From the NCBI RefSeq assembly GCF_057098645.1, contig NZ_JBXSPU010000002.1: a DNA stretch of 64,000 nt. One strand, 5' to 3'. The position numbers were made by a program. Below are positions 1-3,000 of this stretch, in pieces (within the stretch, counting starts at the first letter, position 1; every line of letters starts with the position of its first letter). This stretch comes from a plasmid.

Positions 1-3000
1 TAGCTCATAGGACATAGCCAGTGCCGTCAATGCTTCTTCGGCTTCCTGAAGCGATTTAATGGCCGTTTGGCGCATCTCTGTGCGGTGTTCAATCATGGTA
101 ATGTTTGTCCTCGTTGCACAGTTCCTTTTAGATGCAAGCTCAACGCCTGCATTAAAATTCATGCCGTCTTTTTTGGCTTCGGTGGCTCGCTGGGAGGCGA
201 TATGGTCGGTAATCTGCGGGTGCCTTCGATTACAGCCGTATCATTTGTGGTCTGCCGGGAAAGCTTCATCGGATACTCCTTTGCCCGGAGCCGCCGGGGC
301 GGGGGGGTGTTCACACCTTGTGTTTGCTGCAACGGCATTTTTTCAGGCAACCGGGAAAGTAACTTTTTCGACATATTCCTGCTTTATGTACCCGCTTTTC
401 ACACTAAAGTGAAATTTGCCCTCCTTAGCGAGAATTTAAAACGGACGGATCGCGTACTATAACCCCCGGAAAAAAAGTTACTTTTTTTTCGCCTCAGGTT
501 ATTAGGAAATGAATCGAACCTGGTATTGTTGTTTTGTAGCGAACAAACACCCTAAACGAAAACTAAAAGGAAGGCACCATGTCCACTGTCGAAAATGATG
601 TAAAAACCGCTAACAACGATATCAGCCTGCGCACCTACCTGGAGCGTACCGGTAACGGCGCACGCAAAAGCAATGGTCTAGTCATTAACCCGGCAGTGGT
701 CGAAGAGGAAGAGGGGTTTAACACCCGTACTGCTGGCATTGGGGAGAGTTACTACTCATTACCTGACGTGGTAGCCCACCTGAACAGCCTGAAAGAGTCC
801 TACAAGATCGATCCTTTAAGCGTACAAGCTATTGTCGTACAGATTCTGAATGGCCGTCCGGTCCTGCGCCAGGGAGCATGCCGTATCCGTGCCGTCGCGA
901 TGGCAAACATCGAGCTGGCAGATGAAGGGCGTGAATTGATCACGTTAATTCGATGCGAGGAGTTTCGCGGTAGCCGCGCCAGTGCCGAGCAGTTTACGCT
1001 GGACGGTAACTCAAATCTGGCTCTGTCTGTCGTAGCTGAGGCGCTCTCCATCAAACGGATGGTTGAAGACGCGGAAGAACCCAAAACGTTCGCTGAACTG
1101 GCGAAGCGTCGCGGTAAAACCGAACAGCACCTGCGTCAGATGGTTCGCGTCCTGGATCTGCCTGAAGCCCTCCAGGCCATGTTGGTGAAGGGTGAAGTGA
1201 GTATGTATGTCGCGCTGGATGAATACCTTTACAGCGGCGATGAAGCGGTCAACAACATCACCAAAGCCATTGATGTTTATGGTAAGGCGACGGCCAAAAC
1301 CCTGAAATTCGTCAAAGCTGGCAACATTGATGCAGCGATGAAGCCGAAAGCAGCCATCGTGCCGGACGCAAATGCGACCCCCCCGGAAACCACCGTGACT
1401 GAACAAACGTCCGGCGAAGGTACTAACGATGAGACCACCCCACCGCAGCTGGTGGACGGGAGTGCGGGCACTAACCCGGAGCCGACCCCGGAAAGGACCC
1501 CGGCACCGCAGATGAAAGACCCGGTCAAAACGCCAGAGCCTAAAGCTGTGTCGGTCTCCAGCGTACTGAACAAAAAGACCGTGACGACGATTGCGGACAC
1601 GGCAATCCCGCTGTTTTCGCGTATTGCGGAAGAAGCTAAACAACGGGCCGCTAAGAACCTCAGCGACGATACTTACACTCTGGTGCTGACCAATGACGAG
1701 ATGAATGCCATTTGTAAAGCTCACGGCGATCTGACGCAGTACCTGCGTAAACATGCTGAAAAGCAGAACAAGGGCCAGGCATGATTTCCTGACTGACCCC
1801 GCCACCCGGTAGGGTCGGTTACCACCACTGGTCAAGGAGAAACAGGGCAATGAAGAATACCGCAATCAACATCAGCACGAAGAAACCATTGCAGACAGTT
1901 AAGGACCCGGTGACCCGGGTCAGCATTCATTGTACGGCTAAGGATGAGAAGGGCGCAGACGTGGAAGTAAATATTCTCGACCTGGAACAGCACCACACCA
2001 CCAACGAAATCAAATTGACGTTTGGCGGTTCCCCTTCCCAGGCGCTGACAATGCTCAGCAGAGTGATGGTCGTGCTGCAACAGCAGGCGGCCGAAGAACT
2101 GCAACGGAATTCCTGCTCCCGTTTGCAGTGAACACCGAAAGGAGCAATGGCACGACGTTATGGATAGAACATGGATTTATAATTTTAAAGGACTCAGTGC
2201 TGGCACTAATTATGTTAAAGCGATTAATCTCTGCGAGTGAATGTGTAGCTACTAGAATTTGTTGGTCTGGCAAAAAACTCCCTAAAAACGCACCACCTAT
2301 GGAAGCTAGTTAATAAAATCTGCTACCTATTTACATAATTCCACATGCGTCCAATTTTTAAGATTGTCGGTTAATTTAAAAAATTTTCAGTGTAGGTTAT
2401 TAGCCAGCAGCCCGGGTTTTATATAATACCAAAAACATAGGAGGTATTATGAAAACCAATCTGGCTTATGCATCTAATTGTTCTGACTCTCTTTACTCCT
2501 TTATTTATCCTGCACTGCAACAACGCTCTGGAACCGAGAATGAAAGTCTCTATCAGCAGGCTATTTCCGCCTGCCATACTCCGAAATAAAAAATGAAAAT
2601 GGGCGGTTACTACGCTGGCCCCTGGCAGATGCTGTTTAACGCATGGTGTCACAACCGTGTACCCAACATTGCCGTACTGCCGGTATTGGCCCAGCAGTGT
2701 TTCTCCTCTTTGCAATGCGAAGAGCTGATCGCCAACTGGCACTAATCACATTATGCCCTGCTGGTGGATACTGGCAGGACTGGAGCACCTATAAATGTAT
2801 AAATATGACAGGAACCGGCAGACGTTCAACTTGATCAATGCGCTTCAGCCGGTCTATCGCAACAATGGTGGCGGTTTGTTTGAGTTCGACCGCAGGAAGC
2901 AACATGAAACAGCAGATCTGATCTTCGAGGCACTGACTTTCTCCCCAACGCCCGAACTGGAGCTGGCGAAATTTGTCCGTCTCAAATCGGTGCGCCGGAT

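Follow-up and report, generated by a model that had tools for sequence, protein, structure and literature searches.

We analysed a 64,000-nucleotide stretch of plasmid DNA (NCBI RefSeq assembly GCF_057098645.1, contig NZ_JBXSPU010000002.1), called the window below, in which a short palindrome with the consensus gAAAAGT-W-ACTTTTc is scattered over the backbone and recurs in front of an orphan gene of the ParB superfamily. The gene lies on the plus strand at positions 579-1784 and encodes a protein of 401 aa (WP_136655515.1, 'DNA-binding protein'), which corresponds to R0104 of plasmid R27. R0104 is the best candidate for the protein that reads the palindrome, because two copies lie in its own promoter region, and we see about even chances that it is a KorB-like reader working independently of a ParA partner. 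Its candidate target is GAAAAGTAACTTTTC. Aligned along its whole length, the window matches the IncHI1 plasmid pYPE10-190k-tetX4 (NZ_CP041449.1, positions 129663-65664; pYPE10 below) with 99.99% identity. That plasmid is a tet(X4) carrier of about 190 kb with a block of resistance genes and insertion sequences (IS) of about 33 kb. For the first 6 kb of the window, about 220 IncHI1 plasmids match at 99% identity or above, and about 57 from IncHI2 at 80-90%. The R0104 protein is 100% identical to the one annotated on pYPE10, and the ATG of its open reading frame (ORF) is preceded, 7 nt upstream, by AGGAAGG, a good ribosome-binding site. The R0104 name follows PMC4853401 (Table S2), where the sole annotation is a similarity to 60 residues of Caulobacter ParB.

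The window has 17 copies of the palindrome core, AAAGTNACTTT, where 0.08 would be expected, and a count of 17 was reached by none of 100 shuffles; one-mismatch variants number only four. On the whole plasmid (190 kb) there are 45 copies, all of them in the backbone and none in the resistance and IS block. No other palindrome of the plasmid is strongly enriched, and no second one that might serve paralogs of R0104 was found. The invariant part is 11 bp long. Further out, A/T is found at positions ±6 in 73% of the half-sites and G/C at ±7 in 51%, and 91% of the sites have A/T at the centre. A preliminary description of the window had spoken of a 15-bp palindrome; the repeat is real, but its outer positions are partly degenerate. 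Among the 45 sites, 25 are perfect 13-mers and 11 read GAAAAGTNACTTTTC. Sites outside any ORF of at least 60 aa are over-represented (16 of 45, for a backbone that is 10.9% non-ORF; p = 1e-5), and over half of the copies are inside ORFs.

The palindrome is conserved as DNA. Between IncHI1 and IncHI2, all 10 specified bases are retained in 6-7 of 8 alignable sites, with flanks that are about 70% identical. At three intragenic sites, the specified third-codon positions are conserved in 8 of 8 cases, against a background third-position identity of 0.42-0.46, and changes occur only at the degenerate centre. This conservation at synonymous positions therefore points to selection on the DNA itself. 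The same motif is found at 0.24-0.38 copies per kb in IncHI2, in Klebsiella plasmids of the IncHI1B type and in a further three lineages with R0104 orthologs of 36-47% identity. Over the lineages in which it is enriched, ortholog identity spans 36-67%. One could argue that the arrangement is coincidental, and that an A/T-rich motif of low complexity is nothing more than that and has no function linked to a protein. We give this practically no chance of being right: the enrichment (about 160-fold), the conservation of sites between IncHI1 and IncHI2 and that of the third-codon positions effectively refute it, and the motif is in addition absent from accessory DNA and kept across plasmid lineages. 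A role as hairpin or terminator was rejected on geometry, because the two arms are one base apart.

Two copies stand in front of R0104. The proximal one (AAAGTTACTTT at 474-484; 15-mer AAAAAGTTACTTTTT at 472-486) ends 95 bp upstream of the ATG, in agreement with the distance first reported, and is a candidate auto-operator; it is kept at the orthologous position in IncHI2. The distal one (AAAGTAACTTT, 356-366), 213 bp upstream of the ATG, is also kept in IncHI2. The position of the palindrome in front of the gene is conserved: in five of six lineages (IncHI1, IncHI2, K. pneumoniae L007, L011 and K. grimontii L017) the ortholog start is preceded by a copy at 101-130 bp, and in the sixth (L009) by one at 257 bp, in DNA that is otherwise too diverged to align. 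In the Klebsiella loci (K. pneumoniae L007 and K. grimontii L017), 5-6 palindromes lie within 870 bp upstream of the ortholog.

The palindromes might also be bound by a conserved DNA-binding protein of Enterobacterales hosts, recruited by the backbone, with the ParB-like protein unrelated to them. In its favour, all the plasmids with the motif come from Enterobacterales, and the motif does not differ between the lineages in which it occurs, including those where the ParB-like orthologs are only 36% identical. We consider this explanation unlikely. Copies of the motif are missing from an IncC region and from the F leading region, both from the same hosts, and the motif clusters in front of ParB-like genes. 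Furthermore, we know of no host factor with this consensus, and in chromosomal ParB/parS systems the invariance of the site despite a diverging reader is the rule.

R0104 is an orphan, ParA-less member of the ParB/Spo0J/KorB/Noc superfamily and has the ParB fold. The AlphaFold2 (AF2) model has a mean score of 84 in the predicted local distance difference test (pLDDT), with 96-98 over residues 20-240. Foldseek matched it with probability 1.0 to Myxococcus xanthus ParB with CTPgammaS, KorB-KorA-DNA, Noc and Spo0J, and the best target-normalised TM-score (TMt), 0.64, was to KorB-KorA-DNA (8qa9). Structure prediction is in this respect in line with the ParB/KorB-like protein initially proposed, since it gives a ParB/KorB/Noc-type fold. 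The N-terminal ParB/Srx-like domain (residues ~17-145; 627-1013, plus strand as for the other domains) is supported by its pLDDT of 96-98, the profile alignment and Foldseek matches to 7bnr, 8qa9 and 6t1f. It is followed by a ParB-type helix-turn-helix (HTH) with a helical extension (residues ~146-253; 1014-1337), matched by the Pfam family HTH_ParB and by the PDB ParB-parS chains 6s6h and 6t1f. Then come a P/T/E-rich linker (residues ~254-325; 1338-1553), predicted disordered (pLDDT 40-60) and variable in length and sequence in the alignment of orthologs, and a small C-terminal domain of two long helices and two short strands (1554-1781; AF2 pLDDT 79-87). The latter, presumed to be a dimerisation module, includes a block that is kept in orthologs (SVLNKKTVT...DTYTLVLT.DEM) and can be aligned in paralogs. 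The linker had been singled out as unusual: it is real and its pLDDT stays below 60, but long disordered linkers are ordinary for proteins of the ParB/KorB type.

Sequence searches place the protein closer to ParB and Noc. The only Pfam match is the ParB HTH PF17762 (residues 149-209, E 3e-5), with no match of ParB_N to the protein itself; NCBIfam gave a sub-threshold parB_part only, and in a phmmer search of the PDB the HTH matched ParB chains. We found 249 representative clusters related to R0104 at E <= 1e-3 among 1.84 billion proteins (HMMER), and it is therefore a small family. PF17762 is matched by 72 of 96 relatives. A profile built from these 96 relatives matched ParB/Spo0J (E 2e-18), Noc (1e-15) and KorB (8qa8, 1e-7) in the PDB over the N-terminal domain and the HTH, with the ParB N-terminal domain aligned from profile position ~60. 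Judged by its sequence, R0104 is thus a divergent ParB/Noc-like protein. Its recognition helix is KTEQHLRQM, which across orthologs takes the near-constant form SEQH[LIV]R[QK][ML]. A profile search for diverged homologs with a different site found one locus in genome contigs and none in viral contigs, and two distant homologs (L020 and L021) showed no clear repeated site.

By analogy, R0104 would work most like KorB of the IncP-1 plasmids (RK2/RP4) with its OB operators. Both have a ParB-superfamily N-terminal domain and HTH (8qa9 being the best match, as above), a small C-terminal domain set off by a long flexible linker, and a copy of the respective palindrome in front of their own gene. The sites of KorB and the candidate sites of R0104 are short palindromes of odd length (6-1-6) spread over the backbone, partly at promoters and partly far from them or inside genes. 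The OB operator is TTTAGC-S-GCTAAA, present in 12 copies. The differences are nevertheless numerous. Unlike KorB, R0104 has no KorB_C (SH3-like) domain and no KorB match in Pfam, its family is nearer to chromosomal ParB and Noc by sequence, and its gene shares no operon with a ParA (IncC) or a KorA-like partner. Its candidate sites number about 45 rather than 12 and have no fixed spacing to promoter hexamers, its motifs for cytidine triphosphate (CTP) are degenerate, and the region of its gene can be deleted.

Chromosomal ParB/Spo0J with parS and Noc with its binding site (NBS) are the other obvious terms of comparison. They gave the best profile matches and have near-perfect palindromes, many of them intragenic, that are invariant while the protein diverges. 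Noc also has many dispersed sites and no ParA partner. In contrast to them, R0104 is plasmid-borne and ParA-less, and its candidate palindrome is odd, with 13-15 bp, whereas parS has 16 bp and the NBS 14 bp. The box II and box III residues that ParB needs for CTP hydrolysis are replaced, and a reading of the sequence revealed no obvious N-terminal membrane-targeting helix of the kind found in Noc.

If R0104 is the reader, a dimer would bind gAAAAGT-W-ACTTTTc through the HTH, and the upstream copies at 95 and 213 bp would make its expression self-limiting. The other ~43 backbone copies, of which about half are intergenic or in promoters and about half intragenic, would serve as operators or as further sites of binding or loading, at a distance. 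R0104 could in this way influence transcription or DNA organisation over the whole backbone, in the manner of KorB and OB on IncP plasmids, and would not be the centromere-binding protein of a partition system. We infer binding by R0104, rather than by a paralog or another factor, together with autoregulation, the sign and reach of the regulation, and CTP-dependent sliding.

The published data on R27 show that R0104 is expressed constitutively and that its region is dispensable for plasmid stability. Its array signal is high and independent of temperature (2196 at 25 °C and 2155 at 37 °C), next to silent neighbours (PMC7366339, supplement). The R27 deletion Del7 (90,001-96,150), which removes R0099-R0110 including R0104, gave a viable and stable plasmid, and only Del16 lowered stability (PMC4853401). 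We also found in PLSDB the complete sequence of a non-mobilizable IncHI2 derivative without an R0104 ortholog. The stability of Del7 and this derivative make a role in partition unlikely, and give no indication of an essential 'kil-override' role of the KorB type.

The surroundings of the gene and the partition loci of the plasmid agree with this. The preliminary description held that R0104 is the only protein with a ParB-fold HTH in the window and that there is no ParA gene there. Accordingly, when the ParA, the partition ParB and the three ParB-like paralogs of the plasmid were searched against the window with tblastn, the R0104 gene alone was matched. The 20 kb beyond the start of the window contain neither a parA nor clustered parS, the finding that had been named as fatal to a KorB-style interpretation. 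The sole ParA of the plasmid is about 61 kb from R0104 and adjoins its own type Ia ParB; the true partition loci (type Ia ParA/ParB, and ParM) are all at a distance of over 60 kb. Around parAB, the 7 kb upstream and the 0.95 kb downstream are free of palindromes, as is the vicinity of parM, and the intergenic region downstream of parAB has other inverted repeats. We rejected the partition ParB as the reader in view of this lack of palindromes near parAB and parM, although the phyletic pattern is compatible with it.

The palindromes are very improbable as dispersed centromeres with R0104 as a second centromere-binding protein, acting with the distant type Ia ParA or without any. Such a role would suit the ParB fold and the near-perfect, parS-like and often intragenic sites, and dispersed centromeres are known from prophage N15 and from chromosomal parS sites. 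Yet no ParA gene adjoins R0104, two partition systems without neighbouring palindromes are already present on the plasmid, R27 was no less stable after a deletion covering R0104, and the non-mobilizable IncHI2 plasmid lacks the ortholog. The preference for a KorB-style regulator over a partition protein stood in so far as the protein has a ParB/KorB/Noc fold and no ParA, the partition loci are elsewhere and free of palindromes, and the promoter-proximal palindrome is conserved; the KorB domains did not bear it out.

This last point is one of several that weigh against R0104 as a KorB-like reader. Neither the KorB domain PF08535 nor KorB_C PF06613 was matched by the R0104 protein in Pfam, and among the 96 relatives PF08535 is matched by four at E <= 1e-3 and KorB_C is listed for none. 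The search for ParB and KorB domains thus recovered the ParB HTH (PF17762) and not the KorB C-terminal domain. The CTP motifs also depart from the canonical ones. R0104 has a box I-like GFNTR, but its box II reads GACRIRA for the canonical GERRxRA (the Gly, the central Arg, the next Arg and the Ala are kept; the Glu and the first Arg are replaced), and box III, canonically ENxxR, corresponds to G143-N144, with Gly for Glu and Leu for Arg. On RK2, korB cannot simply be removed, unlike the R0104 region, which is deletable in R27 and whose ortholog is missing from the IncHI2 derivative. We found no sigma-70 consensus promoter beside the sites upstream of R0104, and the 45 sites showed no constant spacing to promoter hexamers. 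Reading the sequence by eye, we noted an extended -10-like element, TGGTATTGT, at 521-529, common to IncHI2. A single-stranded (Frpo-like) promoter upstream of R0104 was rejected, as the folding of positions 200-578 was not significant on either strand (z = -1.3). The K. pneumoniae ortholog of the IncHI1B type (L007) has a partly different recognition helix, SVTHVRKL, and the same motif. Finally, in all lineages the motif is accompanied by the type Ia partition ParB and by many other backbone proteins, and the phyletic pattern therefore does not discriminate between readers.

R0104 is also not alone on the plasmid, so that its uniqueness as a ParB-like protein holds for the window and no further. 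Two more orphan ParB-like paralogs, 33-35% identical to R0104 over ~190-225 residues (N-terminal domain and HTH), are encoded outside the window, both on the minus strand: R0042 (R27 name), at 164225-165382 of pYPE10 (L005:14225-15382), and a third paralog of 358 aa at 172712-173788 (L005:22712-23788). All three match PHROG 1033 ('ParB-like partition protein'). The R0042 promoter region has a conserved one-mismatch palindrome, AAAAAGTACCTTTTT, about 90 bp upstream of the gene in both IncHI1 and IncHI2, and in three other lineages genes of the R0042 clade have a perfect palindrome 43-130 bp upstream. Since R0042 has the palindrome in its promoter region too, a promoter-proximal site marks membership of the regulon and not necessarily the reader.

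These observations make it possible, though less probable than R0104 itself, that another protein of the plasmid (R0042, the third paralog or an unrelated regulator) reads the palindrome. R0104 would then only be under its control, with a target of its own elsewhere, for instance on the host chromosome as for HerB/YfjB. The upstream sites of the R0042 clade in several lineages fit this explanation. So does expression: the array signal of R0042 exceeds that of R0104, and conditions permissive for transfer induce it (PMC7366339). On the other hand, the motif stays the same while the recognition helices of the R0042 clade vary (SNTTIAAL, SPTTISSL, SEMAVRQI, SEQNIRSL and QVSSIRQM), an argument for R0104 as the reader, and the third paralog has no palindrome upstream. 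An R27 deletion of R0037-R0043, which includes R0042, is viable (PMC4853401). The R0042 gene adjoins a divergent Dam methylase gene and lies upstream of a DUF4942 gene, a trio that recurs in IncHI2 and in a metagenomic contig (L022); in another metagenomic contig (L014), the adjacency to a Dam-type methylase is all that is common with the R0042 locus.

The part of this explanation that concerns the host chromosome draws on HerB (YfjB), which is encoded in the F leading region and binds the chromosome without a recognisable motif (PMC13370423). Both proteins are orphan ParB-like proteins of conjugative plasmids with an N-terminal ParB-like domain and an HTH, and both genes lie among genes of the leading-region type, namely hok and DUF905 and, around R0104, also DUF957 and DUF3085. 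However, R0104 has 401 aa against 652 aa and lacks the defining D3 and D4 domains. HerB is not enriched on F and has no motif (PMC13370423), whereas the candidate sites of R0104 are on the plasmid; the F leading region, as seen above, does not have this palindrome. R0104 is expressed constitutively in established plasmid carriers and is not silent, whereas HerB is zygotically induced. The family criterion of PMC13370423 asks for four domains, each covered to at least 80%, including the D3 and D4 dimerisation core. We rejected membership of R0104 in this family: BLASTP against F YfjB (652 aa) gave nothing significant, and the C-terminus is different.

R0104, taken as a KorB-like reader, can further be compared with BisD of ICEclc. 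BisD (PMC12409273) is likewise ParB-like and works without a ParA; encoded by a conjugative element, it is loaded at parS-like sites and affects a large number of the element's promoters. In contrast, BisD uses two bisS sites, has an extra activator domain and requires BisC, features not found for R0104, and it keeps the GxxR arginine and both binds and hydrolyses CTP.

A more speculative idea, to which we give a low probability, goes beyond both KorB-type control and partition. IncHI-type megaplasmids (IncHI1, IncHI2, the Klebsiella IncHI1B type and relatives) might keep a plasmid-wide 'chromatin' system with ~45 invariant loading sites, preserved at synonymous positions even within essential transfer genes, and a ParA-independent ParB-like clamp with non-canonical nucleotide motifs. 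Two paralogs would share the work, one of them, controlled by the palindrome, being induced when transfer is derepressed. Such a system could set the backbone apart from acquired DNA, and silencing, transfer and establishment could be coordinated through it.

Much clinically relevant resistance travels on IncHI plasmids, major vehicles of tet(X4), mcr-1 and typhoid multidrug resistance, and mcr-1 was present on the IncHI2 plasmids examined here. About two thirds of the ORFs of IncHI plasmids have no similarity to known genes (PMC4853401). In the literature collection searched, the motif strings led to no plasmid paper and no prior description of the palindrome, and no paper dealing with the function of R0104 was found. 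A palindrome of 13-15 bp at ~45 backbone positions, under purifying selection at the DNA level in lineages diverged to ~36% protein identity, thus appears to be an undescribed element. The three orphan ParB-like proteins form a short list of candidate readers, with R0104 first. If R0104 proves to be the reader, IncHI plasmids would have a KorB-like global system that derives from a different branch of ParB and has unusual nucleotide-binding motifs. This would extend the recent view of ParB-type clamps as regulators of transcription (KorB, BisD, HerB) and provide a backbone-wide target for interfering with IncHI plasmids.

The remaining copies in the window lie both between and within genes. 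The first, at 4890-4900, is intergenic, 164 bp upstream of the ORF 5064-5378. The coupling protein gene traD has two: one near its 3' end (9580-9590), found at the same position in IncHI2 traD with a difference only at the central N, and one near its 5' end (11310-11320), where 4 of 4 third-codon positions are conserved relative to IncHI2. The intergenic region upstream of mobI, presumed to be the region of the origin of transfer (oriT), contains copies at 16046-16056 (187 bp upstream of mobI) and at 16531-16541 (~76 bp upstream of the gene 16617-17417, and kept in IncHI2). These two bracket the region in which MOBH-type plasmids are expected to have their oriT. Another copy is inside the gene 16617-17417 (16971-16981) and is kept in IncHI2 with the central base alone changed. 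The copy at 19609-19619, ~30 nt inside the 5' end of trhH, has a counterpart at the corresponding place in IncHI2 (L006 40611).

Further along, two copies 82 bp apart (25146-25156 and 25228-25238) are found between the convergent genes for a TraG-N-domain and an HAD-domain protein. Two copies have a central G, one inside the HAD-domain gene (25506-25516) and one overlapping the stop of the gene 26566-27315, 22 bp upstream of the next start (27309-27319). A copy is located at the convergent 3' ends of the DsbA-family and Y-family polymerase genes (29763-29773), and another is intergenic, 116 bp after the gene 33062-36397 and ~170 bp upstream of the next one (36513-36523). The copy at 44655-44665 falls within the thermonuclease gene (R0153), 14 nt from its 5' end, in a promoter region that is divergent with a cytosine methylase gene, and the last one (46169-46179) is near the 3' end of a DNA cytosine methyltransferase gene. 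The last ~17 kb of the window (47000-64000) are accessory DNA with IS26, IS1 and resistance genes, and have no palindrome, against about one per 2.8 kb in the window backbone. The R27 check primer Del8_DOWN, ACCCGCCGGAAAAGTAACTT (PMC4853401, Table S1), ends inside the copy at 9580-9590, and could therefore mis-prime at other copies.

The neighbours of R0104 are a hok toxin gene upstream and small unknown ORFs downstream, among which an ORF of 93 aa had no family match. The hok-type gene (L001 19605-19724) lies in the 20 kb before the window, ~280-400 bp from its start; these 20 kb contain small plus-strand genes resembling those of leading regions (hok, DUF957, DUF3085, an HNH endonuclease and a member of the phosphoadenosine phosphosulfate (PAPS) reductase family). 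A DUF905 gene lies downstream of R0104 (3904-4140). The F leading region has the same set of genes (ssb, DUF905, yfjB, psiB and hok) around its own ParB-like gene, the ParB-like proteins themselves not being detectably similar. Between the two palindromes upstream of R0104, at 397-414, is an inverted repeat, TTTCAC-N6-GTGAAA. In the Klebsiella ortholog locus, a similar repeat, TTTCACGCCAAAGTGAAA, stands directly after the proximal palindrome (L007 19882), and none was found in IncHI2.

Some related plasmids have particularities of their own. The IncC plasmid NZ_LT985258.1 (L008) has another dispersed palindrome, of 18 bp, ACTTTCACATGTGAAAGT, at 3438, 3897, 9221, 12557, 26835 and 30250. All six copies are intergenic, one of them 62 bp upstream of parA, and none adjoins the IncC orphan homolog. 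In its outer pentamers the IncHI half-sites reappear with their order swapped, the two palindromes being otherwise unrelated. Klebsiella plasmids of the IncHI1B type have dense palindrome clusters, such as four copies in 330 bp within a 1.3-kb intergenic region (L015, NZ_CP055058.1, 228-559) and six copies upstream of the R0104 ortholog (L007 19123-19871), which resemble centromere arrays more than anything in IncHI1 or IncHI2. A few kb downstream of the latter ortholog, a Cas6/Cse3-like gene is followed by a helicase-C-domain gene (L007 24827-27270), and the pair may be part of a plasmid-borne module associated with clustered regularly interspaced short palindromic repeats (CRISPR).

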